NCBI GenBank assembly: GCA_041650715.1
Contig: JBAZKQ010000001.1
Coordinates: 723,913-787,912 of the forward strand
From: Patescibacteria group bacterium
Lineage (GTDB): Bacteria > Patescibacteriota > Patescibacteriia > Patescibacteriales > UBA12465
Direction: 5' to 3'
Length of the DNA stretch: 64,000 bases
The translations under genes were made by a program, and so were the position numbers. Shown here in pieces: positions 3,591-62,913 of this stretch. Under the pieces are notes generated by a model. That model did not search any database. It worked only from the letters and a program-made list of their open reading frames with translations, and was not told where the DNA came from. Numbering within the stretch: the first letter of the stretch is position 1; each line of letters begins with the position of its first letter.

Positions 3591-4961
3591 ATGAAAAAAA
3601 TAAAACATTTTTATATACTGTCTATTTTATTTTTTGTTTTATTTCCATTTTTTTTAGTTTCTGCTGATATCGCTCCAATGGGAAAGGTTAATAGTGCTGC
3701 TGATTTCAATGCTTGGGGCGGAGGCAAGTGCGTCTACTATTCGGGCGGGGGCTGCAGCTCGGGCCAATGGTTAAATAGTGACAAGAGTAATTGCGCCTGG
3801 GAGCCCTGTTGCAAACAACACTTGGATGGCTATCCCGCCAACGACTTTATTTATCGATTTGCGACTCTTAATACTCCTTGTGTTAGTAAGACCGGTTTAA
3901 CTGAGACCATAGAACCTGACCAAACAAAATGTGTTAATCCAAACTTTGACTGCTGCTGTCCGGGTGCTCCAATTATTGCGCAGCAAAGTACCGTAGAAGA
4001 AAAAAAAGCCATCTATACTCCTCCCGATTTGCAGGTGAAGATACCAGGTATGGAAAAACTGTCGACTATCAGTTGTGACGAAACCGGACAATGCGAAATT
4101 CCTTGGCTCGGGCAATATGTAATCGGTATTTATAATTACGCCCTGAGCATCGTCGGTATTTTAGCGGCCATTATGCTCATGGCCGGCGGCCTACTTTGGT
4201 TAATTTCGGCCGGAGATGCTTCAAAAATAACTCAAGCGAAAGAGCTTATCACCGGCAGCGTTACCGGCCTAATTATTTTGGCCGCCTCTTTTATAATTCT
4301 TGTCCAAATTAATCCTAACTTGGTAAATTTTAATGCCCTTAGTTTATCTTCAATCAAGCGAGTAGATCTCGGTGATGCCGCTTGGACCCCAATAGTTTCC
4401 ACTAAACAATCGGTTGCGGCCTATTGCGGCTGTGTTGATTGGCATACCTTATATGCAGGTTCTAATCTAAAATCAGCCTCGGCGATAAAAGCGAAATTAG
4501 CAGGTTCACCCTTAGAAAGTTATAGCGATTTAGTTGCTTCTGCTTGTCAGCAAACCCAAATTGATCCGGCTTTAGTTTTAATTATTTGGCGCGTTGATAG
4601 TATCTACGCAACCGCCGGTCCAGGAAAAAAGAACAACAATCCCGGTAACGTCCGCTGCGGTGAGAAAAAAAGTGGCAATGGCTGGACCTGCGTCGACAAC
4701 TTCAGGCATTATGATAATCTCGCAATCGGCATTACGGATTGGTTTGTCGTTGTTGGCCAAGGCAAGCGCCTGAGCTCAAGTAAGAATATTCGTGAATTAA
4801 TTAAAACCTATGCCCCACCCAGCGATCATAATGATACTCAAGCCTATATTAATTTGGTTATGAGCGCGATAGACTCCGCTCACGGCGGCCAATTAAAAAC
4901 GACCGACGGCAGTGCCGCTTCTTTGCAGAAATGTACCGATATAAATAGTACTTGCCCATAA
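3591..4961 (+). CDS. secreted pilin-like membrane protein: Cys-rich N-domain, two-TM pilin core, lysozyme/SLT-like C-domain (tentative)
   Basis: Signal peptide (FFLVSA|DI). Core IPWLGQYVIGIYNYALSIVGILAAIMLMAGGLLWLISAGDASKITQAKELITGSVTGLIILAASFIILVQINPNLVNF. The C-domain has QIDPALVLIIWRVDS...NNNPGNVRC, which resembles the lytic transglycosylase/muramidase helix plus NNxxN motif, with D in place of the usual catalytic E. Confidence 0.65.
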   Translation: MKKIKHFYILSILFFVLFPFFLVSADIAPMGKVNSAADFNAWGGGKCVYYSGGGCSSGQWLNSDKSNCAWEPCCKQHLDGYPANDFIYRFATLNTPCVSKTGLTETIEPDQTKCVNPNFDCCCPGAPIIAQQSTVEEKKAIYTPPDLQVKIPGMEKLSTISCDETGQCEIPWLGQYVIGIYNYALSIVGILAAIMLMAGGLLWLISAGDASKITQAKELITGSVTGLIILAASFIILVQINPNLVNFNALSLSSIKRVDLGDAAWTPIVSTKQSVAAYCGCVDWHTLYAGSNLKSASAIKAKLAGSPLESYSDLVASACQQTQIDPALVLIIWRVDSIYATAGPGKKNNNPGNVRCGEKKSGNGWTCVDNFRHYDNLAIGITDWFVVVGQGKRLSSSKNIRELIKTYAPPSDHNDTQAYINLVMSAIDSAHGGQLKTTDGSAASLQKCTDINSTCP

Positions 4962-4968
4962 GACTATT

Positions 4969-5997
4969 ATGAAAAAACTAATTTTTATCATCAGTTTCAT
5001 AACTATATTTTTTATTTTTTCCGCTCCCGCTTGGGCGGCGTGCTCTTGGGAAACGGAAATTACCACTACGACCTATACCGCTCTCGGCTCAGCCCCGGTT
5101 ACGTCTGTTTCGGGAGGCTGCATCGCTAAAAGCATGCTTAAGGATAGTGATACTAAATGTTCCGGGACTAAGCCGACTTTTAGCATCAACTCCGGAAAAT
5201 CGGCCGTTTGTTGCTGTGATGGCGATCTTGGAAGCACGGATAAAATGCCGTTATTTAATATTCCTGATTTACAAGTAAAAATTCCGGGTATGCAAAATTT
5301 TAGCCAAACCACTTGTATCCCCGGAGCCAGTGGCGGTTATTTTTGCCAAATACCATGGATTGGACAATATATAATCGGTATTTATAATTATGCCATTAGC
5401 ATTGTCGGTATTTTAGCGGCGATTATGCTTATGGCCGGCGGCTTACTTTGGTTGCTTTCGTCGGGAGATGCTTCAAAAATTAGCCAAGCCAAAGAATTAA
5501 TTATCGGCAGTGTAACCGGCCTAATTATCTTGGCGGCCTCCTACATAATTCTCGGTCAAATTAATCCCAATCTCGTAAATTTTTCGCCAACCGCGATTAA
5601 TACGGTGGCCGATGTCGAACCGCTTTCCAGCGACGGCAATATAAATAACAGCACCGAATGCAATAATTGCGTTTCGCTGCAAAGCGCGATACCTTATAAA
5701 AATGGCCACCTCATAAATAGTGATTTGAATGCTAAATTGGCAACCGCTTGGGCAAACTCGGGTAGCCTGAAGTGGAGGGTAACCGAGGCTTATCCGCCCT
5801 CAAGCATGCACAACAGCCTTTGCCATAATAACGGCATGTGCGTCGATATCGCTTTGACGACCGATAAGAGTTGCACTAATGTAAATAAATTAATCTCAAT
5901 TTTAAAAAACGCCGGCGTATCAGTTTTAAATGAATACACCGGCTGCGGCGGGACCCAGACGACTTATGCCACGGGCGGGCATTTACATGTCAGATAA
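4969..5997 (+). CDS. secreted pilin-like membrane protein with LAS/peptidase-M15-like zinc hydrolase C-domain
   Basis: Signal peptide (SAPAWA|A). The pilin core is a close match to ORF 3591 at both protein and DNA level. The C-domain has H-x6-D (CHNNGMCVD) and a terminal HxH (GGHLHV), the LAS metallopeptidase signature. Confidence 0.65.
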   Translation: MKKLIFIISFITIFFIFSAPAWAACSWETEITTTTYTALGSAPVTSVSGGCIAKSMLKDSDTKCSGTKPTFSINSGKSAVCCCDGDLGSTDKMPLFNIPDLQVKIPGMQNFSQTTCIPGASGGYFCQIPWIGQYIIGIYNYAISIVGILAAIMLMAGGLLWLLSSGDASKISQAKELIIGSVTGLIILAASYIILGQINPNLVNFSPTAINTVADVEPLSSDGNINNSTECNNCVSLQSAIPYKNGHLINSDLNAKLATAWANSGSLKWRVTEAYPPSSMHNSLCHNNGMCVDIALTTDKSCTNVNKLISILKNAGVSVLNEYTGCGGTQTTYATGGHLHVR

Positions 5998-18022: not shown

Positions 18023-21000
18023 TTATTTTCCGTAATCGACGCGTTTTTTCTTACCTTTATATCCGGTACCGGCTGGGATTAAACAACCGATAATAACGTT
18101 TTCTTTCAGACCCTCGAGATAATCGATTTTGCCGTTAACGGCGGCGTCGATAAGAACGCGAGAGGTTTCTTGAAAGGAGGCGGCGGAGAGGAAGCTGTCG
18201 GTAGTAAGAGATGCCTTGGTAATACCAAGCAATAACTTTTCGGCCTTGGCCGGATTCTTCAGCCCCTTATTCGCTTGCGCCAATACTTCGTCCTCGATTG
18301 TTTCACCCGGCAGGAGCGCGGCGTCGCCGGCTTCTTTCACCAAATAACGGGAGAACATTTGACGCGCAATAATTTCAACGTGCTTATCGTTCAAGGGTTG
18401 ACCCTGAGAACCATAAACATATTGGATTTCTTGAATAATATATTTCTGAGTTTCAAGTTGGCCTTTAAGTTTATATAACTCACGCAAATCGAGACTGCCT
18501 TCAGTCAGCTGCGTGCCCCGTTCAATAACATCACCGTCTTTAACCATTAACATCGTACCCTTCAGAATCGAGAATTCCTTAACTTTCTCCACATCTTTGG
18601 CGACGCTAATGTATTTATCGGTTACCGATGCCTGACCGGCTGATTTCGAGCGCACGACATCGCCGTTGATACTGAAAAGATCAGTGTTTTTGGCGACTTC
18701 GGCCCCATCCTTAACCAAAACCTTGGTTTCCAATTTCTTTTTATCCTTGGCAGTAATACCACTGGACAACTTAATCTCATTAATTTTTTCCGAGAAATAA
18801 TATTTATCGTGGTCCTTGCCTTTGTAGAAAATGCTAAGAATCTTGGCCTGCGGGTTATTTACGGAAATCTCTTTCCCTTCCTGATCTTTAATAATTTTCT
18901 GCGCAAACTCAATTTTAACCCGACCGGCGACATCAGAAATTAAAGCCTTTTTCTTCGGGCTGCGCGCTTCAAAGATTTCTTCAACGCGCGGTAAACCCTG
19001 GGTAATATCGTCCTGACCGGCCACACCACCGGAATGGAAGGTTCTCATAGTTAACTGTGTGCCCGGTTCACCGATAGACTGAGCGGCAATAATTCCGACG
19101 GTCGAACCCATCGCCACGGGCTTATTGTAAGCCAAATCCCAACCGTAACATTTCGCACAAATTCCTTTGTGCATCTTGCAGCTTAGAACCGAACGGACGC
19201 AAGCTTCACTAATATCTTTAGTTTTAACTAATTTAATGTTTTCTTCATTCAAAATTTCTCCAGCCGCAAGTACGAGCTTGCCTTTGACGTCGACAATATC
19301 TTTAGCGACGTAGCGACCGGTCAAACGGCGGAAGAAATCTTCACCGTTCTTCTCGATTTCCGCGCGCTTAAGAGTCATACCGACAGTATCGCCGCAGTCG
19401 TCTTCCGCGATAATAACATCTTGCGAAACATCAACCAAACGACGAGTCAAATAACCGGCGTTAGCTGTTCTTAAAGCGGTATCGGATAAACCTTTACGCA
19501 CACCATGAGTAGAAATAAAATATTCCAATACGCCGAATCCCTGTTTAAAGTTTCCTTTCACCGGTAATTCGATGATGGCGCCACTTGGTGAGGTAACTAA
19601 ACCCTTCATTCCTAAAATCTGTACCGGCTGCGCCCAAGAACCGCGGGCTCCGGAATCAATCATCGAGAAAACTGGCAAAATATCCATCAATCCTTTTTTA
19701 CAAATATCGGCAATCTTATCTTTAGTATTGGTCCATTCTTCAATAACTTTGGCGTAGCGTTCTGATTCGGTGAGTAAACCTTCGTTATATTGTTCCTGAA
19801 TGAGTTCTACTTTTTCATTGGCCAAATCGATTAATTTATCTTTCTCGGGCAGGCTCGGCAAATCGCCGAAACCCCAGGACAAACCAGACTTGGTAATAAA
19901 GGCAAAAGCGCGGTTCTTTAAGCCATCAATAAACTTAACGGTTTCGTCTTCGCCATAAATGCGTAAACATTCACGAATCAAATCTTTTAATTTACTCTTA
20001 CCGACAACATCATTAATGAATTTTAATTTTTCCGGAAGCAACGAGTTAAAAATTAGGCGACCGACAGTTGTCTTAAGCATCTCGCCTTTATATTTAACGC
20101 TAATCGCTTCATGCAAATCAATATAATTACTTTCGTAAGCAAGCAAAGCTTCGTCTTCATTATAGAAATAACGCATTTCGGTGACTGGTTTTTCCAGGAA
20201 ATCTTTTTCCACCAAAGTAATATAATAGGTACCCCAAACAATATCCTGCGCCGGGGCCACGATTGGGTCGCCGGTCGCCGGTTTAAGCAGATTGTGAGTA
20301 GAAAGCATTAAAGTTTCCGCTTCGTGGCGAGCTTCTTTAGTCAGCGGAACATGAACAGCCATTTGGTCACCGTCGAAGTCGGCATTAAAAGCCGTACAAA
20401 CGAGCGGATGAATCTGGATAGCTTTACCTTCGATTAAAATCGGGCGGAAGGCCTGAATACCTAAACGATGCAAAGTTGGTGCACGATTTAAGAGAACGAA
20501 GGCGCCGCGGACGATTTCTTCCAAAATATCCCAAACCTCGTCATGCCCGGCTTCGATATAGCGAGAAGCGCTGCGCACATTATGCACAATTTCTCTTTTA
20601 ATCAATTGGGAAATGATGAAGGGTTTAAATAACTCGAGGGCCATAATCTTCGGTAAACCGCACTGATCCAAATTTAATTTCGGATTAACAACAATAACCG
20701 AACGGCCGGAGTAGTCGACGCGCTTACCGAGTAAATTCTGACGGAAACGGCCCTGTTTACCTTTCAAAGTATCCGCTAAGGATTTCAATTGTCTCTTTTG
20801 ACCAGTTGAAGCAGTTACAGTCTTGGTGTGACGGGCGCTATTATCAATTAAAGCATCAACTGCTTCCTGTAACATTCTTTTTTCGTTGCGGCAGATAACT
20901 TCCGGCGCGTTAAGATCCATTAATTGCTTTAAGCGATTATTACGGTTAATCACGCGACGATATAAATCATTTAAATCGGACGCGGCAAAACGACCGCCGT

Positions 21001-29898: not shown

Positions 29899-29985
29899 AT
29901 TCTCTTCTGAAGATACCATAATTATATGATATTTTCGGGAAAGAAGCGAACAGGTGAACTGCCTGTTCGCGCTTTTTTTGAACTT
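29899..29985 (-). ncRNA. conserved intergenic element, copy A (hairpin plus second hairpin; no hammerhead core)
   Basis: Shares GUUCAA, a GCGAACAG(G)/(C)CUGUUCGC stem, CUUCUUUCCCGAAA, a covarying second hairpin and UUCAGAAGAGAA with 33568-33658. Starts 8 nt after the helicase stop. Confidence 0.55.
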
Positions 29986-33457: not shown

Positions 33458-33567
33458 TTTTATAAGTTTTGGTTTTGAGGATGGTCAAACAAATTTAGCC
33501 AGCCTAAAAACCAAAACTAAAGGATAAATAATAACCTTATTACTATTAAGTTTTAAACGTACACTTT

Positions 33568-33658
33568 TTTCTCTTCTGAAAGCACCATTGGTAAATTTCA
33601 CTAATGATGATTTCGGGAAAGAAGCGAACAGTTTGAAAGTCTGTTCGCTCTTGAACTT
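33568..33658 (-). ncRNA. conserved intergenic element, copy B
   Basis: Paralog of 29899-29985. Lies between the DHH-motif gene stop (33727) and the helicase leader. Confidence 0.55.
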
Positions 33659-33726: not shown

Positions 33727-34575
33727 TTATGCCTGGGGTTTGTCGTAAGCCCCGGCAAAACCACGGCCAGCATCACCATAGGCCTGATAAAGACCGTTAG
33801 CAGCTGCCCAGCCGTTGGGATAAGTTGGCCGGCCTTCGGCCATTACGGCCTCACCGAGAAATTCGGCGACAACCGGTTTGGTACCGGACAGGTTCACCTT
33901 GTCCGGGAAACGTTTGTCTCCCTTTGCGAGATAAGGTGTGGCTGTCATGACTCCGGCCTCTACCAAAAATGGTATCGGACCCGAGTCGCGAACATCTGCT
34001 ACCTGGACACCGCCGAGCGTGACAGTTTTGGTCGGATTTTTCAGCTGCTGAACAGCGGCTTCGATTCCGGCCATAGCTTCGGCCTCCGAAGAAACGTTTT
34101 CACGTTTCATAATTTCGGGAAGACGCATGGCGAGAACTTCTTCAGCCGTAACACCAGGACACTGTCCCTGGTAGGCGGCGCCAAGACAGTGGTCTGCGGC
34201 AGCTATCACCCGGTCCTCCTGAGTTGGCTCAACTTCGAGATATTTCAGGAGTTGCCCCAATGAGGAAGCCTCGAGATACTGGCTTGGCGGTAAGCCGAAG
34301 CCAAAATTTCCTGGGTTATGATGGTCGCATTGCCCAACCATGACCAGCGAGCCGGCGGCTTTCGGAGAGCATTCAAAAATAATGCATTCCAAAGCCTCGG
34401 CGGCAGATTCGGTTGAATCCAGAACGAAGCCGTCGGCACGGTAGGCTGTCATTGGGTTGCACTTTTCGCCTGCAATTGTTGCCGTGGCTAAAAGTAAACC
34501 GTGCTGAGCGGCAATTTTGCGTGCTCTCTGCTCCTCGATGTCGGGAGCGCCGAAAATAATCACAATTTTATTCAT
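33727..34575 (-). CDS. DHH-motif protein (putative phosphoesterase), paralog 1
   Basis: 282 aa from MNKIVIIFGAPD. Contains QCDHHNPGN and AAADHC. It aligns by eye with ORF 34862..35632 (KIVIIFGAPD/KIFFIVPAND; CDHH/IDHH; SSLGQLLKYLEVE/SSIEQVAALLGVE; IAAADH/IAANDK). The track's upstream 17 codons fall inside the conserved leader hairpin, so I trimmed them. Confidence 0.6.
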   Translation of the reverse strand: MNKIVIIFGAPDIEEQRARKIAAQHGLLLATATIAGEKCNPMTAYRADGFVLDSTESAAEALECIIFECSPKAAGSLVMVGQCDHHNPGNFGFGLPPSQYLEASSLGQLLKYLEVEPTQEDRVIAAADHCLGAAYQGQCPGVTAEEVLAMRLPEIMKRENVSSEAEAMAGIEAAVQQLKNPTKTVTLGGVQVADVRDSGPIPFLVEAGVMTATPYLAKGDKRFPDKVNLSGTKPVVAEFLGEAVMAEGRPTYPNGWAAANGLYQAYGDAGRGFAGAYDKPQA

Positions 34576-34601
34576 TTTTTTCTTTTTTTCTCCGCGCACC
34601 A

Positions 34602-34656
34602 TTGCTCGGATTATTCTGTAACTCATAAATTATGAAATCCAAAATAATCCGGACAA
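34602..34656 (-). promoter_or_regulatory. conserved 5'-leader long hairpin, copy 1
   Basis: Arms 34602-34615 and 34643-34656 (minus strand UUGUCCGGAUUAUU / AAUAAUCCGAGCAA) enclose a 27-nt loop containing CAUAAUUUAUG. About 100 nt of leader is near-identical to 36580-36690. Confidence 0.6.
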
Positions 34657-34723
34657 TATGCTCCTTAAAAATGAAACAAATTTTTAGGTCTTTCTATTTC
34701 TATATTTTTCTATCAAAGAACAT

Positions 34724-34776
34724 TTCCATTTCGTCGTTTCCGACTCATCAGCACTGATACACATCAGTGGATGGAA
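34724..34776 (-). ncRNA. type III hammerhead ribozyme (HHR-1)
   Basis: Minus strand: UUCCAUC|CACUGAU-GUGU-AUCAGUG-CUGAUGA-GUCG-GAAA-CGAC-GAAA-UGGAA. All core invariants are present (C3-A9, G12-A14, A15.1:U16.1, C17, G10.1:C11.1). Stems I, II and III are 7, 4 and 6 bp. Confidence 0.9.
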
Positions 34777-34861
34777 GAGCAAGTTTAAACGGCTTGCTCT
34801 TTTGAACTTTTTTTTGCTGGCCAACGCCAATTACTCCGCAAAAGAGAGTATGATTTTGAAA

Positions 34862-35632
34862 TTATTTTTGCCAGAAAAATTCCAAAATCTTGACCTGGGT
34901 TTCTGGAGTGGGTTTTTCCACTCCCGAGAATCCATTCTTCGGATCACCACCGGCCCAGCGAGCGAATGTCGTTCCATCCTCAGTGAGAGCATAAAACTGC
35001 ATGTGCCGTGGACCGAAATAAATCCATTTTCCATTGAGGCCGTCAACGGTCAGAAGTTCAGCGTACTGACCAAAAATGCGGTCGGTAATTGCCGAAGTGG
35101 AGCCCTTTGGGCAACGGACAAACCATTTTTCGCCCCGGATTTCAGCCGACCGGATATCAGCTACTGCTTGGGCCTCTTGATCAGGAGTGACGCCCTGCGA
35201 CAAGCGGTCTTGGGCACGAACAATTTTAATTTCGTTTTCAGTTGCGCCCATCGCCCTTAATGCCGGAATGTATCCTTTATCATTGGCGGCGATAAGGAGT
35301 TGATGGTGAGTAAGTTCTACTCCCAAAAGAGCGGCCACCTGCTCGATTGAGGATTTTTCGTTGAAACGATTTTCATCACGGTAAATGTGATGATCAATAT
35401 TAATTGCGTTCCAACGAGCGAGCCCGCCCAGTTCAACCCCGTAAATCACGGCCGAAGGATTAGCGGATAAAACTCCCTCAACTTTTTCAACCACGGTTTG
35501 TTCTAACCTGGCCCAGGTTGCTCCCCAGGCTTGACGGGTAACTACGTGACTGATTTTAGCGGCCTGAAGAATTTTACGGATTTCTACCGCTTCGCCATCA
35601 TTAGCTGGCACTATGAAAAAAATTTTTTCCAT
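34862..35632 (-). CDS. DHH-motif protein (putative phosphoesterase), paralog 2
   Basis: 256 aa. Contains NIDHH and AANDKGY. Start is coupled to the upstream stop (UAAUG). Confidence 0.6.
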   Translation of the reverse strand: MEKIFFIVPANDGEAVEIRKILQAAKISHVVTRQAWGATWARLEQTVVEKVEGVLSANPSAVIYGVELGGLARWNAINIDHHIYRDENRFNEKSSIEQVAALLGVELTHHQLLIAANDKGYIPALRAMGATENEIKIVRAQDRLSQGVTPDQEAQAVADIRSAEIRGEKWFVRCPKGSTSAITDRIFGQYAELLTVDGLNGKWIYFGPRHMQFYALTEDGTTFARWAGGDPKNGFSGVEKPTPETQVKILEFFWQK

Positions 35633-36063
35633 TACACAAAGTTTAATTGGCCACCAAGCTCATAAGCAACGGCGTCCTGGTTGGTTAAAACTTTTATCTC
35701 TTCGGCGAGCGAAGCTAAGTTCTTCCGAACTTTACTGGCTATGCCTATACCCCAGAGAATCCAAATATATTCAATTTGAACCACTCCGTTTTCGGATAGT
35801 ACCCACATACCGCTAGCCGGGGTTTCATTGCTGAACCCCAAACTCTTAGCATGTTCACGTAGCTTCTGGACGTGCTCGGTTGCCACCGGCTCACCAGTTT
35901 TTTGTAGAGTTGGGATATATAGGGCATCCCGTCCCCCTTTAAATTCTTCTCCGAGTTCCGAAAGTTCTTCAGTGGAATATGTCCACCAACCGATTTCCGG
36001 TTCAAGAGTACACCCACCAGCTCTAAGAGCCGCCTCAAGAGGCGACTTTGCTAAATATTTCAT
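35632..36063 (-). CDS. hypothetical protein (143 aa)
   Basis: The ORF starts 24 nt after HHR-2 and its stop overlaps the next start. No motif recognised. Confidence 0.55.
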   Translation of the reverse strand: MKYLAKSPLEAALRAGGCTLEPEIGWWTYSTEELSELGEEFKGGRDALYIPTLQKTGEPVATEHVQKLREHAKSLGFSNETPASGMWVLSENGVVQIEYIWILWGIGIASKVRKNLASLAEEIKVLTNQDAVAYELGGQLNFV

Positions 36064-36087
36064 CTACCGCGTTGTTTTAATGAACAT

Positions 36088-36140
36088 TTCCGTTTCGTCG
36101 TTTCCGACTCATCAGCACCGACATACATCGGTTGACGGAA
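36088..36140 (-). ncRNA. type III hammerhead ribozyme (HHR-2)
   Basis: Minus strand: UUCCGUC|AACCGAU-GUAU-GUCGGUG-CUGAUGA-GUCG-GAAA-CGAC-GAAA-CGGAA. Core and stem II are identical to HHR-1. Stems I and III carry compensatory changes. Confidence 0.9.
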
Positions 36141-36180
36141 GAGCAAGTTTGAACGACTTGCTCTTTTTTGAACGCCCTTG

Positions 36181-36579
36181 CTATTTAGCCTTGGGCCGAA
36201 AATCCAAGTACTCGAACTCCACTTCCAAAAAAGTGAGTTGAGTTGTTGACTGGCCCAATTTTTTCGCGGTCCTTTTCAGAACCTTGAGAGTCGCGGCTTT
36301 GTAGGCCGCTAATTCGGTGTATTCCGGATTACATTCGCCAGTGATGGCGACTGTAATTTCACCTCCGACAGGGCAGCCCCAGTCTTTGTGATAAACCGTG
36401 CGCGCCGACGTAATCACGGCTCCAACATAGGTGCCGTATTTTTTCATAACTGCGGCCGCTGATTGCTGCCATGCTTTTGCAGCGATTTCCACTGCATTGT
36501 CGGCAGTAATCACTGCATTGTCGTGGCCATAGCCTGCAACAACTCCCAGGCTGGCAAAAAATTTACTGGTTTTTTTCAT
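36181..36579 (-). CDS. hypothetical protein (132 aa)
   Basis: ORF preceded by the conserved leader hairpin and an A-rich tract. No motif recognised. Confidence 0.55.
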   Translation of the reverse strand: MKKTSKFFASLGVVAGYGHDNAVITADNAVEIAAKAWQQSAAAVMKKYGTYVGAVITSARTVYHKDWGCPVGGEITVAITGECNPEYTELAAYKAATLKVLKRTAKKLGQSTTQLTFLEVEFEYLDFRPKAK

Positions 36580-36606
36580 TTTTTTCTTTTTTCGTCCGCG
36601 ACACCA

Positions 36607-36661
36607 TTGTCCGGATTATTCTGTAGTCCATAAATTATGAAATTCAAAATAATCCGGACAA
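36607..36661 (-). promoter_or_regulatory. conserved 5'-leader long hairpin, copy 2
   Basis: Perfect 14-bp arms at 36607-36620 and 36648-36661 (UUGUCCGGAUUAUU / AAUAAUCCGGACAA). Confidence 0.6.
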
Positions 36662-36719
36662 TATGATCCACAAAAAATGAAAAATCTTTTTCGACTATTC
36701 AATTTCAAAGAACTTTTTT

Positions 36720-37668
36720 TCCTCTACCTAATCTAATTAATCTATTCTGAGGAAGTTCCCGAGTCCCAAGCTTGTTCAAGGCTTAATGGCTCGGCCGATC
36801 TCCTCATAAGAGACGGTCACGATTGTCGCTTTTCTCCGAGCCTTTTCTCCTTTCGGAAATACGGCCACAAGATACTTGGATCGCCTGCGCCCTTGATTAT
36901 AGTTTGCGACATAATCTCGGGATCAGCTCGACTAACCGTTTATTCTTTCCGGTCCGTAGGCCACGAAAGAAGCAAACGAATGAGCGCTTGCTGGTCTTAG
37001 GAAATGAACTCTCTCCCTGACTCGCAATTTTTGCGAGCAGATGTTAATTCATCTTAATCTCCTAAAATCGACACTAATCGCTCGATAATTTTTTTATTAT
37101 TTATGTACGATAGATTATTCCTTAATCTAATTAGGAGAACGGTTTAACCGCCGTTCTTTCGGCTCTCCGCTAAGCGGATAGTGATGAAGGGGAGAAACGA
37201 ATACATTATTTTGTGGCGCGCATGGGGCTGCACCGCTCTCTCTCCTCTCCATTACTATTCACTCAACAAAAAACTCTCTATTATGGAGAGAGCAAAGTTC
37301 CTATATATGCGGGCGCGCCTTAGCTTAATCAAGCCTCTGCGCTCACGTATATATCTTGGTTTTAAATAATGGCTCTCTCCTTCCATTACTTTTCTATTTG
37401 TAAATGTTCGTCTCGACTTCTCGCCCGGCTCTTGGCCTGGGCATTAGCGGAGACTGGGTCTCTCTTATCTTATTGATAAGGGATGGCCACTCGCCGTTAA
37501 GGCTTTCCCTGTTCTTACCCTTCGGATTGGACTACCACCATGCTCTCTCCTTCATAATGGTCGTCACTCTAACCCAGCTAAGTATAGAATCGGGGAGTGA
37601 TATCTCTTTATTAATGAATGTACTGGGATGTGTCCGAATGTCTCTTTGCCTTTTCTCACTTTCGATAC
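36720..37668 (-). ncRNA. candidate large structured non-coding RNA or long leader (no ORF of 60 aa or more on this strand)
   Basis: Lies downstream of the minus-strand promoter at 37701-37673. Dense local hairpins. Three GGAGAGAG-containing repeats (plus coordinates 37538-37560, 37367-37390, 37233-37256) and a complementary GCUCUCUCC (37285-37293). Class unknown. Confidence 0.45.
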
Positions 37669-37672
37669 TAAC

Positions 37673-37701
37673 AGTTTAGCATAGATATTTAATCTTGTCA
37701 A
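37673..37701 (-). promoter_or_regulatory. sigma70-like promoter facing the GC-rich block
   Basis: Minus strand TTGACA (37701-37696), 17-nt spacer, TAAACT (37678-37673). Confidence 0.55.
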
Positions 37702-37797: not shown

Positions 37798-37826
37798 TTG
37801 ACACCTATATTTAAATTTGCTATAAT
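37798..37826 (+). promoter_or_regulatory. consensus sigma70 promoter of the TrmB-like gene
   Basis: TTGACA (37798-37803), 17 nt, TATAAT (37821-37826). The -10 is embedded in palindromes GCTATAATATAGC and TATAGCTATA. Confidence 0.7.
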
Positions 37827-37911: not shown

Positions 37912-38700
37912 ATGAACGAAAAAATCTTAATTAGTCTCGGTTTAAGCGGTGTACAAGCAGAGGTTTTTAGTTGCCTGCTCCAAAACGGACCGCAAAAAGC
38001 CAGTGATATCGCCAAATTAACCAAGCGCCCCCGCGGTGTCGCCTACAAAGGCTTAGAGGAATTGATTAGCTTGGGTCTGGCCAATAAAAAAGAAGCAAAG
38101 GCCGGTATAGCTGTCTTCGCGGCTGAGCACCCCTCGAATCTCGAGAAGGTCATAGAACAAAAAGAAAAAGACCTGGCTAAAACCAAGTCTGCTTTTGCGA
38201 GCTCCCTGCCCGATCTGATATCGACTTTCAATCTTGTCAGCAATAAGCCAGGAGTTAGATTTTATGAGGGGGAGGAAGGAATTAAAAAATCCCTGGAAGA
38301 TACCTTAAATTGCCAAGACATAATTTATACTTTTGCTGACATCGAGGCCGTTGAAAAAAACGTCAAAGAAATTAATGACGCTTACGCTAAAAAGAGGGAG
38401 AAGGCACAAATTAAAAAAAGAGTTATCGTCGCCGATACTCCTTTTAATCGCTCTTATTTAAAAAATTATAATGGCACTATTACCGAGTTTCGTTTTCTCC
38501 CCAAAGATTTTTACAGTTTTAACAGCGGCGTGCAAATTTATGAAAATAAAGTTTCTTATCAAGTAATTTCGGCGGAGAATAAGATGGCTATTATTATTGA
38601 AGACAAAAATATATACCAAATGAATAAGCTTTTATTTGAGTTTATCTGGGAAAAATTGGCAACTAAAATTAATGATTCTTCTCAAACGCCAAATACCTAA
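37912..38700 (+). CDS. TrmB-family HTH transcriptional regulator (paralog 1)
   Basis: 262 aa. N-terminal wHTH (LGLSGVQAEVFSCLLQNGPQKASDIAKLTKRPRGVAYKGLEELISLGL). The shared block PGVRFYEGEEGIKKSLEDTL matches ORF 52657..53430. Confidence 0.75.
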   Translation: MNEKILISLGLSGVQAEVFSCLLQNGPQKASDIAKLTKRPRGVAYKGLEELISLGLANKKEAKAGIAVFAAEHPSNLEKVIEQKEKDLAKTKSAFASSLPDLISTFNLVSNKPGVRFYEGEEGIKKSLEDTLNCQDIIYTFADIEAVEKNVKEINDAYAKKREKAQIKKRVIVADTPFNRSYLKNYNGTITEFRFLPKDFYSFNSGVQIYENKVSYQVISAENKMAIIIEDKNIYQMNKLLFEFIWEKLATKINDSSQTPNT

Positions 38701-41182
38701 TATTTCCCTGGGGTTCTTCATCCTTATCATAAAAATAACGCGTTAAAGTATATTTCCCCTTCTTCGCTTCCAGCTCCCGTCCCTCATCATCAACCTTGGG
38801 TAATAATTCACTCAAGGTTTTTTGATAGTCGGCCATCTCGGAATTTAAATCAAAACGCAAAACAAAAGTTTCGCGGCCAATTAAATCTTTTAACTCCACG
38901 CAGCTTTGCGCCGCCATTTTTAACTCACTAATCGTCAACGGACCGTCCTTCCCTTCCGGTCTAAGAGTATAATTTGAGTTGTTCTCTTTATCCAATTTTA
39001 TATTATATAAGCTTTCGCCGGTCTGATGATAATTCTCAATGATCCCGTTAGCCACAAAACCAATTTTTTCGACATAAGAACAACCCGCCGGAATTTTTAT
39101 GGAAGCAGTTGCCTCTAAAACATTATCGTCCCCTTCTCTCATTAAGGCTTTTTCCATCAGGTCATTGCCAATTGCTAAACCACGCAAATCTTTAGAAACA
39201 TTAAACGACCCGGCATAAACAGTGCTCCGGTCAGTTTTTTCAAAACGAACGAAACCGATTGCCTCATCTTTAAACTTTAAAATATAAGCCCGTTGGTTTT
39301 TATCATTTTCCAAAGCTTCCTCCAATCCGGACAGAGCCACCTTGGCCATTTTATCGTTGCCAAAATTATTCCAATTAGCTTCAGCCATTTCCAAAACCTC
39401 TTTCTTGTCTTTTTCGTTTATACCTTCACCGTAATCATTGACCTGTAAACTTAAATCTCGGGCCGATTCAATATTGAACTCTTTTTGATATTTCTTAATT
39501 GACTCTAAAAGGCCCGCTAAAATAGTTATTTCCGATTTATTATTGTTAAGATTATGCAGGAGCGCATCAAAATTTTTATTTTTGTTGTCCGCCAATTCTT
39601 CAATAATTTTCGCCGACTTCTGGAGTAAAACCTGACGCAAACCATTAACGGTATCGTCTTCAACACTTGTACCGCTCTTAAAAAACAGCGGAATTAGATC
39701 ATTAATCTTCTGTGTGGTAAGTTCATTTATCTTACTGATTGCCGAGAAAACCGCGCTTGCCTTTTCCGGAGCTATCCTATTGCCCAGACCCAACTCGATT
39801 ATCTTTTCACCGAGATTATTGCCCCGCTCCATGGCTAAAAACGTTTTTAGGCCATCAATGCCATAGCGTCCGACAAATTCTTTTAATTTCTGTTCATCTT
39901 TTATTTCCGATGTATAATTAGCGATTAAAATTTGTTCCGACCAAGACAATTCCCTAATTGGAGTTTTTGTTTCTAAAAATAAAGACCGAAAACGATTATG
40001 GACAAAATTTACATCATTGAGGTTAGACAAACGATCGGCATATTCTTCGACGGATTCTTGCGGCCGTTTCGGAAAATGGTCTGAAACATGATAAGGTTTA
40101 ATCCGCTCCTTCATATGTTCGGCTGGAATAGTCCGAAAAACATCCCGTTTGTCGGCAAAAGAAAAGTCTTTATATTCCGGCTCGGATAATTTATTAAAAG
40201 TGTATAAGATTTTTTCTCGGCCATGGCTTGTCTCCGTAATACCCATTAAATCTTTGGCTAGTTCCACTGCCTTAATGTCGGGCGTTATCTCCTTGTCTGT
40301 TCCGGTTATCTTATTACGGCCAATATAATATCTAACTAATTTATTATTTTCTCCAGAAATATTAACATAGGGGTTGGATCCGCCAAATTTGCGGTCATGC
40401 GAAAAAGACACGGCGGCCGACTCGGAATCAGTGGGTCGAGTTTTTAAATCTTCATTTTTAAATAGATTTAACGAGTCAATCGTCGGTAAGAATTTTTTAA
40501 TAAAAATCGTGGGGGTTCCCTCAAATGAATATTTCTTTCCATCCGCGACAAAAGTTATTCTGCGATTAAACAACTCTCGTGATTTTTTGAACGCAAAATC
40601 ATTAGTCTGCCCGTTTTTGGGATCAGTATATTCTAAATTTCCTTTTTCATTACGACGCAAATCAATTTCTTTAAACTTCTGTAAATAATATAATTCAGCT
40701 AATGATATATTGTTACCATCATCCAATTTAAGTTGGCTAGAAAATTCCGGCCGCTGACCAATTTCCCACGGCTTAATTATACCTTTAGAGAAATCGCCCC
40801 TCTTAGCATCTTCAATGTTGTTAGGGAGCGAAAGGAGCGGCTTTCCCGCCTGGGCGGCTGCACCATTATCGTCGCTCGCATCTTTCGCTAATCCCTTTTT
40901 ATCCCTTAAATAGTCTAAAATATCCTGATAATTTAAATAGTGTCTTCCCCCGTTTTGATTAATTGATTTGTTTATAAAACGATCGGACATTTTAAAGCCT
41001 CCGAGTGCATCGAGGTCAAACCGCTCTGCGCCATCCTCTCCGGAAATAATACCTAATTGTCTAAACTTTTTATCGACATCAGAAAAAATCAAGTCGCGAT
41101 CAAACCCGTCTGGTTGGTTCCCTGACTCGGCTTTTGAAATATCTGGCGCAATTACCTCATTTTTCAACATATATTGAATCAA
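38669..41182 (-). CDS. large hypothetical protein with GNAT-like acetyltransferase domain near the C-terminus
   Basis: 837 aa with no signal peptide or TM helix. AYILKFKDEAIGFVRFEK...VSKDLRGLAIGNDLMEKAL...GFVANG resembles the GNAT motif A region. The first ~620 aa are unassigned. Confidence 0.55.
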   Translation of the reverse strand: MIQYMLKNEVIAPDISKAESGNQPDGFDRDLIFSDVDKKFRQLGIISGEDGAERFDLDALGGFKMSDRFINKSINQNGGRHYLNYQDILDYLRDKKGLAKDASDDNGAAAQAGKPLLSLPNNIEDAKRGDFSKGIIKPWEIGQRPEFSSQLKLDDGNNISLAELYYLQKFKEIDLRRNEKGNLEYTDPKNGQTNDFAFKKSRELFNRRITFVADGKKYSFEGTPTIFIKKFLPTIDSLNLFKNEDLKTRPTDSESAAVSFSHDRKFGGSNPYVNISGENNKLVRYYIGRNKITGTDKEITPDIKAVELAKDLMGITETSHGREKILYTFNKLSEPEYKDFSFADKRDVFRTIPAEHMKERIKPYHVSDHFPKRPQESVEEYADRLSNLNDVNFVHNRFRSLFLETKTPIRELSWSEQILIANYTSEIKDEQKLKEFVGRYGIDGLKTFLAMERGNNLGEKIIELGLGNRIAPEKASAVFSAISKINELTTQKINDLIPLFFKSGTSVEDDTVNGLRQVLLQKSAKIIEELADNKNKNFDALLHNLNNNKSEITILAGLLESIKKYQKEFNIESARDLSLQVNDYGEGINEKDKKEVLEMAEANWNNFGNDKMAKVALSGLEEALENDKNQRAYILKFKDEAIGFVRFEKTDRSTVYAGSFNVSKDLRGLAIGNDLMEKALMREGDDNVLEATASIKIPAGCSYVEKIGFVANGIIENYHQTGESLYNIKLDKENNSNYTLRPEGKDGPLTISELKMAAQSCVELKDLIGRETFVLRFDLNSEMADYQKTLSELLPKVDDEGRELEAKKGKYTLTRYFYDKDEEPQGNIRYLAFEKNH

Positions 41183-61582: not shown

Positions 61583-61656
61583 GGGCAATTAGCTCAGTTG
61601 GTTAGAGCGCAACACTGATAATGTTGAGGTCGGAGGTTCGAATCCTCCATTGCCCA
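61583..61656 (+). tRNA. tRNA-Ile(GAU)
   Basis: GGGCAAT/ATTGCCC acceptor stem, anticodon loop CTGATAA, T-loop GGTTCGAATCC. Confidence 0.9.
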
Positions 61657-61680
61657 CTCTAAAGTATAGTTGATAATTAT

Positions 61681-61753
61681 AGCGGGATAGAGCAGTTGGC
61701 AGCTCGCTAGGCCCATAACCTAGAGGTCGTCGGTTCGAGTCCGACTCCCGCAA
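61681..61753 (+). tRNA. tRNA-Met(CAU), initiator-type
   Basis: Anticodon loop CCCATAA. An A1/A72 mismatch at the top of the acceptor stem and A73. The body is close to what I recall of E. coli tRNA-fMet (GAGCAG..GCTCG...AGGTCGTCGGTTCGA.TCCG.C.CCCGCAAC). Confidence 0.8.
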
Positions 61754-61777
61754 CAAGTTTAACAATAGTATTTTCAT

Positions 61778-62092
61778 GCCTCGGTAGCTCAGTGGTAGAG
61801 CAAAGGACTGGTTTTCGGTCCGCTCAATGGAAACATTGAGATGAAAATCGGGTGAATTCGGGGAAGCCTTAATTTAGAAATAAAAAAGGTAATCCCGAGC
61901 CAAGCTTTAATTGGGTAAATAATTAAAGAAGGTGTAGAGACTAGCGGGTGAGCCCAACAATAACCCCGCCGCGAGCGCCCGACTCCGTCCTTAAAAATTA
62001 AGCGGAGATGATATAGTCCGATCCTTAAGGAAACTTAAGTTGTAGCAAGGAAAATCCTTGTGTCGTCAGTTCGATTCTGACCCGGGGCACCA
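61778..62092 (+). tRNA. tRNA-Phe(GAA) interrupted by a group I intron; CCA encoded
   Basis: Exons 61778-61809 and 62050-62092 join to GCCUCGGUAGCUCAGUGGUAGAGCAAAGGACU|GAAAAUCCUUGUGUCGUCAGUUCGAUUCUGACCCGGGGCACCA. This makes a normal cloverleaf with anticodon GAA. Confidence 0.85.
61810..62049 (+). ncRNA. group I intron (IC3-like) in the tRNA-Phe anticodon loop
   Basis: P1 pairs exon GGACU with the intron guide GGUCC (61817-61821), with a U.G wobble at the 5' splice site. The intron ends in G. Core strings AAUUCGGGGAAGCCUUAA, AAUCCCGAGCCAAGCU and GAAGGUGUAGAGACUAG match tRNA-borne IC3 introns (Azoarcus tRNA-Ile, cyanobacterial tRNA-Leu) as I recall them. Confidence 0.85.
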
Positions 62093-62103
62093 ATCAGTAG
62101 ATA

Positions 62104-62153
62104 AAAAAGTGAACCCATGATATAATTATACTGTTACCGTGGGTTCACTTTTT
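62104..62153 (+). terminator. long hairpin plus T-run after the tRNA cluster
   Basis: AAAAAGTGAACCCA ... TGGGTTCACTTTTTT. The loop contains TGATATAAT, an extended -10-like sequence. Confidence 0.6.
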
Positions 62154-62158
62154 TATTT

Positions 62159-62842
62159 ATGCGTTTAGATAAACTAGAAGTCATAGAATTAAGAAAATCC
62201 GGCCAGTCTTATGGTCAAATAAGTGCTTCTTTGCATATTCCGAAAAGCACCCTTAGTGTTTGGCTAAAAGATATTAAACTTTCACAAATCGCGCAAAAAA
62301 AGATAAGGTCTCGGACAAATTTAACTGCTATAAGCAAATTAATTGAGAGAAATAAAAACCAAACCATCCTTGCGGCCGACAGGCAGGAGAAAATTCGGTC
62401 CTTAGCTAAGGCCGAGTCAAAAAAATTACTTTTAGATCCTCTATTTCTGGCCGGCGTTTCCTTATATTGGGCCGAAGGCTATAAACAAGGGGCGCTCGGC
62501 AGCAAATGGAAAAGCATTGACTTTGCCAACTCCGATCCGGAAATGATCAGATTGATGGTTAATTTTTTCACAAAATTCTTTGAATTTAAAAAAACAGAAA
62601 TTAAAGTCCAAATAATGCTGCACAATCCAAAAGACTCCACCGCGGCTATTAATTTTTGGCAACATCTTACGGGCATACCAAAAACCAATTTTTTTAAAGT
62701 TTCCACAGCTATTAGCCGGGCCAGTTTACAAAAGAGAAATAAAAAACTACAATATGGAACGATACACCTGAGAGTCAATAAGGTCGAATCTTTTTTTCGT
62801 CTGATTGGGTGGATTGATGGTTTAAAAGAAAAATTATTATAA
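62159..62842 (+). CDS. LAGLIDADG-like homing-endonuclease-family protein with N-terminal HTH (tentative)
   Basis: 227 aa. N-terminal HTH (SGQSYGQISASLHIPKSTLSVWLKD). Single LAGLIDADG-like helix (DPLFLAGVSLYWAEGYK). Wedged between two tRNA genes; its stop abuts tRNA-Pro. Confidence 0.45.
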   Translation: MRLDKLEVIELRKSGQSYGQISASLHIPKSTLSVWLKDIKLSQIAQKKIRSRTNLTAISKLIERNKNQTILAADRQEKIRSLAKAESKKLLLDPLFLAGVSLYWAEGYKQGALGSKWKSIDFANSDPEMIRLMVNFFTKFFEFKKTEIKVQIMLHNPKDSTAAINFWQHLTGIPKTNFFKVSTAISRASLQKRNKKLQYGTIHLRVNKVESFFRLIGWIDGLKEKLL

Positions 62843-62913
62843 CGGGGCGTCGTATACCGGTAGTACGCATGCTTTGGGAGCATGTTGACTGGGTTCAATT
62901 CCCAGCGCCCCGA
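62843..62913 (+). tRNA. tRNA-Pro(UGG)
   Basis: CGGGGCG/CGCCCCG acceptor stem, anticodon loop TTTGGGA, T-loop GGTTCAATTCC. 71 nt with a short D-loop and variable loop. Followed by the GAAGGC-TTAG-GCCTTC plus T-run terminator (62919-62948). Confidence 0.85.

Follow-up and report, generated by a model that had tools for sequence, protein, structure and literature searches.

A hairpin leader linked to predicted hammerhead ribozymes and to start codons without Shine-Dalgarno motifs in Patescibacteria

Helices that sequester a start site, such as those of translational riboswitch platforms, fourU and ROSE elements and translational operators, have a segment of the 5′ untranslated region (5′ UTR) that is complementary to the initiation region. 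Substrates of RNase III are found in leaders and between cistrons, as in the early mRNAs of phage T7, the N leader of phage lambda and the rnc and pnp leaders of Escherichia coli. The RiboJ design, said to go back to Lou and co-workers in 2012, reportedly places a hammerhead and then a hairpin upstream of the start site. Clustered hammerhead ribozymes flank single genes in prophage-like regions, where processing into gene-length mRNAs has been proposed (Perreault et al. 2011, PMC3088659). The leader described here shares features with each of these systems. About 110 nt long, it is present in two copies in a 64,000 nt stretch of DNA from a Patescibacteria group bacterium (assembly GCA_041650715.1, contig JBAZKQ010000001.1, positions 723,913 to 787,912), and this whole stretch is referred to below as the window. 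Patescibacteria, or Candidate Phyla Radiation (CPR) bacteria, make up a large share of bacterial diversity, next to nothing is known of how they control expression, and many of them, this genome included, lack Shine-Dalgarno (SD) sequences. From 5′ to 3′, each copy consists of a U-rich box (U-box), a long hairpin (P2), a single-stranded junction and an A-rich start region (Table 1). The leader is an RNA motif absent from Rfam that is mechanistically akin to start-site-occluding leaders and to processing hairpins, and it may gate the start site of the gene that follows.

As in the start-sequestering helices, a 5′ segment is complementary to the initiation region, a stable neighbouring helix joins the two strands, and alternative pairings are predicted. 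Unlike them, the leader would mask an A-tract and AUG with no SD, has no aptamer-like pocket, shows no predicted response to temperature and has no match in Rfam. With hairpins processed by RNase III it has in common a long, near-perfect duplex with a small internal loop, lying in 5′ UTRs at cistron boundaries, whereas primary processing here would fall to predicted hammerheads, with the hairpin downstream of the ribozyme. The order of parts (hammerhead, hairpin, translation start) is that of RiboJ, but the leader is natural, its spacer carries an A-box as well as the U-box, its hairpin is much longer, and its flanks are complementary to the start codon. The clusters of Perreault et al. were described without an associated leader hairpin; the present ones also differ in their CPR host, in hammerheads that score below the gathering threshold, and in the 3′ hairpin that precedes each hammerhead. 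RAGATH motifs, the Rfam entries for RNAs linked to genes that are themselves linked to twister and hammerhead ribozymes, are likewise structured RNAs of unknown function next to hammerhead-associated genes, and none of them matches the leader. The ribozyme arrangement is therefore of a kind already known, and the coupled leader is the undescribed part. Its distinctive traits are the systematic coupling to hammerheads and 3′ hairpins, the setting in a CPR genome without SD sequences, and the association with genes resembling SAM-AMP lyases (SAM, S-adenosylmethionine; AMP, adenosine monophosphate). The Rfam search recommended in the original prediction, which had been made from the sequence of the window alone, returned no match to the leader at the gathering threshold, with the SAM-I to SAM-VI, S-adenosylhomocysteine (SAH), thermometer, RAGATH and leader families included. 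At E ≤ 5 the only matches were spurious look-alikes of microRNA precursors (23 bits against gathering thresholds of 80–96), explained by the long hairpin of the leader. In the library searched, no paper ties hammerheads, or leaders of this sort, to Patescibacteria.

The minus strand carries every gene in this part of the window, and the two leaders precede the genes for a 132-aa protein (p132, leader 2) and a 282-aa protein (p282, leader 1). The presence of two minus-strand leaders at these positions, ahead of unrelated genes, was borne out by a repeat scan, in which they appear as families D3 (89 nt, 83%) and D8 (31 nt, 90%), and by alignment. From U-box to ATG, 96 of 112 positions are identical (85.7%, global alignment), and over about 150 nt the identity is 77%. 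The likeness pointed out in the original prediction is thus real, and 'highly similar' describes it better than 'near-identical'. The arm motif TTGTCCGGATTATTTTG has five matches in the window where 0.6 are expected, and five were reached in none of 100 shuffles.

Homologous loci were gathered by protein homology to p132, and are hence unbiased for leader sequence; they comprise 32 loci from species-representative genomes, 50 from metagenomes, and contigs encoding relatives of p282. An iterated nucleotide hidden Markov model (HMM) recovered 17 distinct leader instances (20 before duplicates were removed); every one is from a CPR-type contig and lies on the gene strand, a short way upstream of a start codon. 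The leader is therefore present in at least 15 CPR contigs other than the window; its absence from other genomes had been named as grounds for discarding the original prediction. The two window copies are more alike than the orthologous leaders of other genomes.

P2 is an RNA structure that is conserved by compensatory changes and selected on the sense strand. Its arms in copy 2 (AUUGUCCGGAUUAUUUUG and CAGAAUAAUCCGGACAAU) form 18 bp, and the hairpin folds with −29.4 kcal/mol (z = −8.3). The stem had been given as 14 bp long, with perfect arms in copy 2 and two mismatches in copy 1. It is in fact an 18 bp stem followed by a 3 × 3 internal loop and a 6 bp apical stem, the latter being the CAUAA-U-UUAUG palindrome that had been recognised in the loop; the arms of copy 2 are indeed perfect, while those of copy 1 depart from this by a single C-A mismatch and a single U-G wobble. 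RNAalifold predicted 22 pairs from the alignment of the 17 sequences, and 12 of them show double compensatory changes, as in pair 99–151, which is G-C in nine sequences and U-A in seven. The apical stem covaries too. With the structure held fixed, 90.6% of the alignment cells are paired, compared to 81.4% in column-preserving shuffles (reached in 0/500), and pairing falls to 36–50% when the 3′ partner is slid by 1–3 columns. The strand preference is equally clear: G-U or U-G cells number 54 and A-C or C-A cells 11, the sense strand is the more stable in all 17 instances (mean −25.7 vs −17.8 kcal/mol; Wilcoxon p = 3e-4), and a covariance model (CM) of the leader scores about 100 bits on the sense and about 45 bits on the antisense strand. 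The 17 sequences are related and these counts are not independent events, which has to be set against the reading of the leader given below; all of the tests point in the same direction. The compensatory substitutions in other genomes and the selection on the gene strand uphold the RNA-level interpretation offered originally.

Two further observations concern the ends of P2. The CGGAG or AGGAG of the junction is complementary to AUCCG or CUCC in the 3′ arm of P2 (in the window, 36600–36594 with 36615–36611), and the junction appears to change with that arm, since locus L005 has CGAAG with UUCG and the first leader of L035 (L035a) has UGGAG with UCCA. An alternative helix between junction and 3′ arm (CGGAG with CUCCG or AUCCG) was considered and left unproven, as it amounts to about 4 bp, was seen by eye, and shifts register between leader types. 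An intrinsic terminator or attenuator was dismissed, as P2 is followed by GGUGUCGCGGACGAAAAAA with no U-run and is not listed in the terminator scan.

The flanks of P2 are complementary to each other. Upstream of the hairpin, the U-box UUUUCAUUUUUU matches the start region AAAAAAAUGAAAA as its reverse complement, so that a second helix, P1, is predicted to enclose P2 and cover the AUG. In minimum free energy (MFE) folds of both window copies P1 is closed around P2 (−40.5 and −35.6 kcal/mol; z = −6.0 and −5.1), and the antisense folds of the same two windows give −30.9 and −24.4 kcal/mol. The AUG is paired with the CAU of the U-box in 12 of 19 MFE folds, and the adjacent A-tract is paired in four more. 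The duplex between box and start covers the AUG in 15/16 instances and exceeds composition-matched shuffles in stability (mean z = −2.6); with minimal context, the probability of the AUG pairing with the U-box, P(AUG:U-box), exceeds 0.5 in 13/16. The same layout, a U-run with CAU, a hairpin of 20–25 bp and an A-run with AUG, is found with unrelated hairpin sequences ahead of the helicase gene (loci L088 and L001, and more weakly at 33518–33465 of the window), after a hammerhead of L003, and ahead of the p132 homolog of L008; the diverged p282 leaders of L086 and L088 have it too. This recurrence with unrelated sequences is the main reason for taking P1 as real.

Structure over a start site is of more consequence in a genome that lacks SD sequences. 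Only one of 42 window genes has an SD motif at canonical spacing, and starts lie in A/U-rich sequence. The absence of an SD had been presented as a feature of these leaders; it holds for both genes, but it is a genome-wide property and not peculiar to them.

Two elements of the window (A and B) have the traits of type III hammerheads, judged by their sequences: a core, three stems, an NUH cleavage site and an open stem III. Hammerhead B aligns end to end with Rfam model RF00008, all stems included, at 41.4 bits, which is below the gathering threshold of 48.5. The complete core (CUGAUGAG...CGAAA) is present in both, and these are the two exact core copies in the window. Stems I and III covary between A and B (UUCCA/UGGAA vs UUCCG/CGGAA). 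Homologous CPR loci carry 1–4 hammerhead cores each (L001–L006, L010, L033, L035, L037, L041 and L047), and a looser core pattern, counted over 89 loci including the window, occurs 72 times on the gene strand vs nine times on the opposite strand. None of the cores across loci reaches the Rfam threshold, and standard annotation would therefore miss these hammerheads. In roughly one leader of three, a hammerhead core lies no more than 51 nt upstream, counting a truncated remnant in L005. Upstream of the remaining leaders stands the box GGAAA(N)GUUCUUU(N)AAAUAAAAUA, a sequence that forms the 3′ flank of hammerheads elsewhere. A family of 3′ hairpins (AAGAGCAAG...CUUGCUCUU and relatives, 8–10 bp) is placed right after stop codons, including those of the p282 and helicase genes, and two of them, of 8–9 bp, end directly before a hammerhead cleavage site, which on release would leave the upstream mRNA with a hairpin at its end. 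The adjacent hammerheads, the complementarity of U-box and start codon and the genome-wide lack of SD motifs had not figured in the original prediction.

Taken together, and at a probability of roughly 0.4, the leader is tentatively read as a cis-acting 5′ UTR module that gates the start site of ribozyme-released cistrons. The hammerheads would release cistrons from a polycistronic CPR transcript, leaving the leader in their 5′ UTR. P2, an interrupted hairpin of about 25 bp and the invariant core of the module, would hold the CAU-containing U-box beside an A-rich start without SD, and a further A-U helix of about 13 bp, P1, could then close over the AUG. In the closed form initiation, which needs an unstructured A/U-rich start site, would be blocked. 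The open form would permit it, with the U-box captured by the A-rich box upstream (pairing P0). Most likely the module would gate how the gene that follows is translated, and possibly also its processing or stability. Candidates for the opening agent are the HrpA-like helicase of the operon, a double-strand-specific cleavage of P2, or an alternative pairing. If the leader is able to bury a start without SD, its ties to hammerheads and 3′ hairpins would show how an operon can be built from RNA-level 'punctuation', and it would be the natural counterpart of synthetic ribozyme-plus-hairpin insulators.

A number of results weigh against the gating of the start by P1. With extended context, P(AUG:U-box) stays above 0.5 in only 7/16 instances and its mean drops from 0.77 to 0.50. 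When at least 130 nt upstream are folded with the window copies, the pairing probability of CAU and AUG falls from 0.73–0.97 to 0.07–0.15 (0.01–0.24 in the 16-instance run), and their start regions are predicted to be about 0.8 unpaired. Some 20 more upstream nt suffice for the U-box to be predicted to pair with the conserved upstream A-rich segment starting with GUUCUUUGA; in extended context the A-tract is predicted to pair with the U-run of codons 6–8, leaving the AUG open. Covariation in P1 is weak, with 88.0% of cells paired vs 85.6% in shuffles (67–76% in slid controls) and four double-change pairs, a count reached by 10/500 shuffles. The weakness is put down to the ability of a U-run to pair with an A-run in many registers. 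By predicted accessibility (−130 to +30), the two leader genes are no more occluded than other genes, and loci L037 and L041 have P2 directly after the hammerhead, without a U-box. No trigger was found: in-silico cleavage by the hammerhead leaves the balance of P0 and P1 as in the uncleaved RNA, which disposes of cleavage as the trigger, and temperatures from 10 to 45 °C do not shift the predicted P1 balance. An RNA thermometer of fourU or ROSE-like type was rejected accordingly, with a predicted P(AUG:U-box) of 0.40 at 10 °C and 0.52 at 45 °C and an unpaired start that is flat at 0.40–0.45. In these models P1 is thermodynamically marginal and dependent on the amount of flanking sequence folded, and the leader has two near-isoenergetic states and is not a fixed lock.

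P2 may instead be a processing or stability hairpin, i.e., an RNase III-type substrate or a 5′ stabiliser that sets the mature 5′ end or the half-life, with P1 secondary or irrelevant; were P2 cut internally, the U-box would also be separated from the start. This is unlikely on balance, and it has several points in its favour: P2 is the sole invariant element and occurs with no U-box in L037 and L041, where it abuts the hammerhead; its length (18–19 bp, 3 × 3 loop and 6 bp, or 20–25 bp in variants) corresponds to the roughly two helical turns expected of an RNase III substrate; the operon is organised around RNA processing, its cistron ends being marked by hammerheads and 3′ hairpins; and hairpins of unrelated sequence in the same position fit recognition by shape. 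It does not explain why an exact CAU:AUG complementarity recurs in independent leader types, and P2 and the junction are more conserved in sequence than a substrate recognised by shape would need to be. The open start in extended context suits a passive insulator, a counterpart of RiboJ in which self-contained folds (P2, and the A-box paired with the U-box) lock up the ribozyme scar and spacer and keep the A-rich start open, constitutively and without regulation. There, both window leaders are predicted to have a start that is about 0.8 unpaired, with the U-box taken by the upstream A-rich box, or in copy 1 by GUUCUUUGA:UUAAGGAGC pairing; the order of hammerhead, spacer, hairpin and start site is that of the RiboJ design, and leaders sit at cassette junctions in places where genomes differ in gene order. 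Insulation calls for no box that is an exact complement of the element's own start codon, P1 is still dominant in 7/16 instances in extended context, and the P0 pairing is not clearly conserved (for example in the L002 type), making this explanation distinctly unlikely.

A riboswitch or protein operator, in which a metabolite (e.g., SAM, SAM-AMP or methylthioadenosine, MTA) or a protein binds the P2 internal loop or junction and selects the P1 state, is improbable. The leader lacks both a multi-helix junction and a conserved pocket, the P2 duplex is nearly perfect and its internal-loop bases vary, leaders of the same architecture carry unrelated P2 sequences, and no known riboswitch family matches; the p132 protein and its 143-aa neighbour (p143) are PII-fold enzymes, which leaves the helicase as the only plausible RNA binder in the cluster. 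On the other side stand the conserved junction GUUGCGAGGAG, the two near-isoenergetic states predicted, the mutual likeness of the window copies, which could reflect co-evolution with a trans factor, and downstream genes of SAM-AMP-lyase-like and DHH phosphodiesterase-like type, for which ligand sensing would make sense. A broader version, in which the leader is the output module of modular ribozyme-insulated cassettes and a true two-state switch set by a signal, is a long shot. The signal may be SAM-AMP or SAM, acting directly or via the RNA of about 1 kb upstream of leader 2, or remodelling by the HrpA-like helicase; if true, the switch would couple translation of a SAM-AMP-degrading enzyme to a signal and represent a new riboswitch-like class tied to hammerhead processing. 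Least probable of all is an element acting at the DNA level, either an operator or promoter (e.g., for a TrmB-like regulator), as in the long-spaced palindromic operator of the original prediction, or a selfish palindrome, such as a miniature inverted-repeat transposable element (MITE), a repetitive extragenic palindrome (REP) or an attC-like site. Promoter prediction places a sigma-70-like TTGTCC-16-CATAAT over both hairpins, many genomes keep a TrmB-like regulator in synteny with the cluster, and there are two copies in one genome with cassettes shuffled between genomes. The hexamers are nonetheless lost in L002, L004, L037 and L041 though pairing is kept, and a double-stranded DNA palindrome would be symmetric, whereas the leader has the excess of G-U over A-C cells (54 vs 11), the greater sense-strand stability (17/17) and the covarying apical stem described above; strand asymmetry and non-conserved hexamers together led to rejection of the DNA operator. 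All instances are also on the gene strand at a fixed distance from the start codon, and leader 1 lies about 3.2 kb from the TrmB gene, directly after a hammerhead inside the operon. An attC site or MITE was rejected specifically, with no R''/R' core sites (RYYYAAC / GTTRRRY), no integrase among the called neighbours and two copies in 64 kb.

Table 1. Features of the leader cluster; positions are those of the window.
Feature	Position (nt)	Strand	Remarks
Leader copy 2, whole	36577..36715	−	5′ UTR of 132-aa SAM-AMP-lyase-like gene, from post-hammerhead-like box to AUG; CM 108.9 bits
Leader copy 1, whole	34573..34715	−	5′ UTR of 282-aa DHH-motif gene, directly 3′ of hammerhead B; CM 101.6 bits
Leader bodies up to ATG	36715–36580 (copy 2), 34715–34576 (copy 1)	−	repeat families D3 and D8
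P2 hairpin copy 2	36606..36662	−	18 bp stem 36662–36645 / 36623–36606, 3 × 3 internal loop, 6 bp apical stem 36641–36636 / 36632–36627
P2 hairpin copy 1	34601..34657	−	arms 34657–34640 / 34618–34601; one C-A mismatch, one U-G
Junction, conserved single-stranded	36593..36605	−	GGUGUCGCGGACG; family consensus GUUGCGAGGAG
U-box copy 2, UUUUUCAUUUUUU	36672..36684	−	5′ strand of predicted P1
U-box copy 1, UUUGUUUCAUUUUU	34667..34680	−	
A-tract, AUG (36579–36577) and first codons	36570..36592	−	3′ strand of predicted P1
GUUCUUUGA box	36705..36713	−	opens A-rich segment predicted to compete for the U-box (P0); elsewhere follows hammerhead 3′ end
Type III hammerhead B	34723..34777	−	predicted cleavage after C34770; 51 nt upstream of leader 1; RF00008 41.4 bits, E 8.7e-7
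Type III hammerhead A	36087..36141	−	predicted cleavage after C36134; between p132 and p143 genes; repeat D2
3′ hairpin (AGAGCAAG...CUUGCUCU)	34775..34800	−	ends upstream cistron just before predicted hammerhead B cleavage site
Equivalent 3′ hairpins	36141–36165, 33604–33652, 29926–29974	−	repeats D2, D4
Helicase-gene analogous leader	33458..33530	−	long hairpin 33518–33507 / 33476–33465, unrelated sequence, then A-rich start region
Conserved structured region, ORF-free, ~1 kb	36716..37700	−	between divergent TrmB-like gene and leader 2
132-aa gene (p132)	36579–36181	−	
143-aa gene (p143)	35632–36063	−	
256-aa gene (p256)	34862–35632	−	
282-aa gene (p282)	34575–33727	−	
HrpA/HrpB-like DEAH helicase gene	33457–29993	−	

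The cluster reads, 5′ to 3′ on the minus strand, leader 2, p132, hairpin and hammerhead (36165–36087), p143, a 256-aa gene (p256), hairpin and hammerhead (34800–34723), leader 1, p282, hairpin, and the gene for an HrpA/HrpB-like DEAH helicase. The true start of p282 is the ATG at 34575. Leader copy 1 is open in frame over 34576–34626, with an in-frame upstream ATG, and gene callers stretch p282 and its homologs into the leader, giving a 299-aa open reading frame (ORF) in the window and calls of 291–360 aa for homologs (P0001, P0003, P0007, P0008 and P0011–P0013). A coding function of the leader was rejected, since copy 2 is not in frame and substitutions follow the pattern of a helix, and opposite-strand mini-ORFs starting from the U-box complement are not kept between the two copies.

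The proteins encoded downstream are unrelated, as originally stated. The p132 model (predicted local distance difference test score, pLDDT, 92.3) has a PII fold and superimposes on the SAM-AMP lyase of Clostridium botulinum from a CorA-associated type III CRISPR system (9GAB/9GAD) and on a SAM lyase (9LQD/9LQE), with template modelling (TM) scores of 0.81–0.91 over these structures (0.86–0.91 to 9GAB) and 32–34% identity. The PADLOC label 'DNA binding C-ter' raised the possibility of autoregulation by p132, which was set aside given the SAM-AMP-lyase-like PII fold of the model. The p143 protein is PII-like, with phage SAM lyase 6ZM9 as its best match (probability 1.0, TM about 0.5). From these models, neither p132 nor p143 is likely to bind RNA. 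Among the cluster proteins, only the helicase then remains a plausible agent of RNA remodelling; in E. coli the processing of a polycistronic fimbrial mRNA requires HrpA, and an RNA-remodelling role of the operon helicase is conceivable. By sequence, p256 is an NrN-like DHH phosphodiesterase, matching the PADLOC models 'DHH_CorA' and 'C3a116' (E = 1e-33 to 1e-36), and NrN-type phosphodiesterase degrades SAM-AMP (PMC12255297). A family search with p282 gave no match, and its proposed paralogy to p256 as a second DHH protein finds weak support in BLASTP (E = 0.07). The repeat scan found no CRISPR array in the window, and a Pfam search of the cluster and adjacent proteins found no CorA. Apart from this cluster, SAM-AMP-lyase-like and NrN-like genes are familiar from type III CRISPR signalling of the CorA type and from counter-defence in phages, and this cargo links the RNA architecture to defence and anti-defence biology in episymbiotic bacteria.

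Most of the leaders precede a p132 homolog, while others precede a p282 homolog (L083), a gene of about 105 aa (L005) or a mini-ORF of 14 codons (L035a). The instance ahead of the p282 homolog in L083 is a further one, and the p282 loci L086 and L088 have diverged leaders that share the U-box, the outer stem (UUGYC...GGCAA) and the A-rich start, with a different, U-G-rich inner hairpin. Distant p132 homologs are common on viral contigs. A phage origin of the leader was rejected, since both its exact pattern and the HMM are absent from 35 viral loci encoding such homologs; strict hammerhead cores are also absent from them, save for one core-like match on the gene strand in L094. With leaders missing and hammerheads nearly so from the viral loci, the RNA punctuation belongs to the CPR clusters.

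Locus L035 (9500–10010) has tandem leaders, in the order hammerhead, leader, 14-codon ORF (MENIFMLIYFLLRR), 3′ hairpin, leader and gene, and both of these leaders have an extra hairpin of about 45 nt between junction and start. The first may be a cassette that lost its gene, or may encode a small peptide. In L037, a DUF805b cis-regulatory RNA (RF02914, 47.3 bits, above gathering) at 18995–19029 overlaps a weak match to the leader CM.

Leader 2 is probably the 3′ end of a long structured 5′ region on the same transcript. The gap of about 1.2 kb between it and the TrmB-like gene lacks, on both strands, any ORF larger than 91 aa; predicted divergent sigma-70-like promoters lie at 37701–37673 (minus) and 37798–37826 (plus). 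The upstream region retains 69–79% nucleotide identity in six other genomes (homologous regions are parts of L001–L006, L034, L036 and L083). Its last 250 nt have 59 consensus pairs, many with invariant G-U on the gene strand and a few with compensatory changes. A search of Rfam with the region gave no match, RAGATH-22 appearing only at the chance level of 16.4 bits (gathering threshold 120.3). It is a candidate for a large structured RNA, which may be a new non-coding RNA, or else for a giant 5′ UTR.

The surroundings of this region recur as a syntenic unit, consisting of a large GNAT-domain protein, a divergent TrmB-like regulator, a gene-free gap of 0.8–1.1 kb and variable cargo. It was seen in L083 (three modules), L084, L086 and at 37912–41182 of the window, and paralogous modules are possible within one genome.

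Elsewhere in the window, a group I intron (RF00028, 93 bits, 61801–62040) lies inside a tRNA cluster (61583–62913) with tRNA genes at 61583–61656, 61681–61753 and 62843–62913, and a 227-aa ORF (62159–62842) adjoins the intron. A direct repeat of 240 nt is present three times (2071–2310, 4092–4331 and 5344–5583; 60–83% identity) within three consecutive plus-strand genes, and these copies are probably paralogous gene segments.

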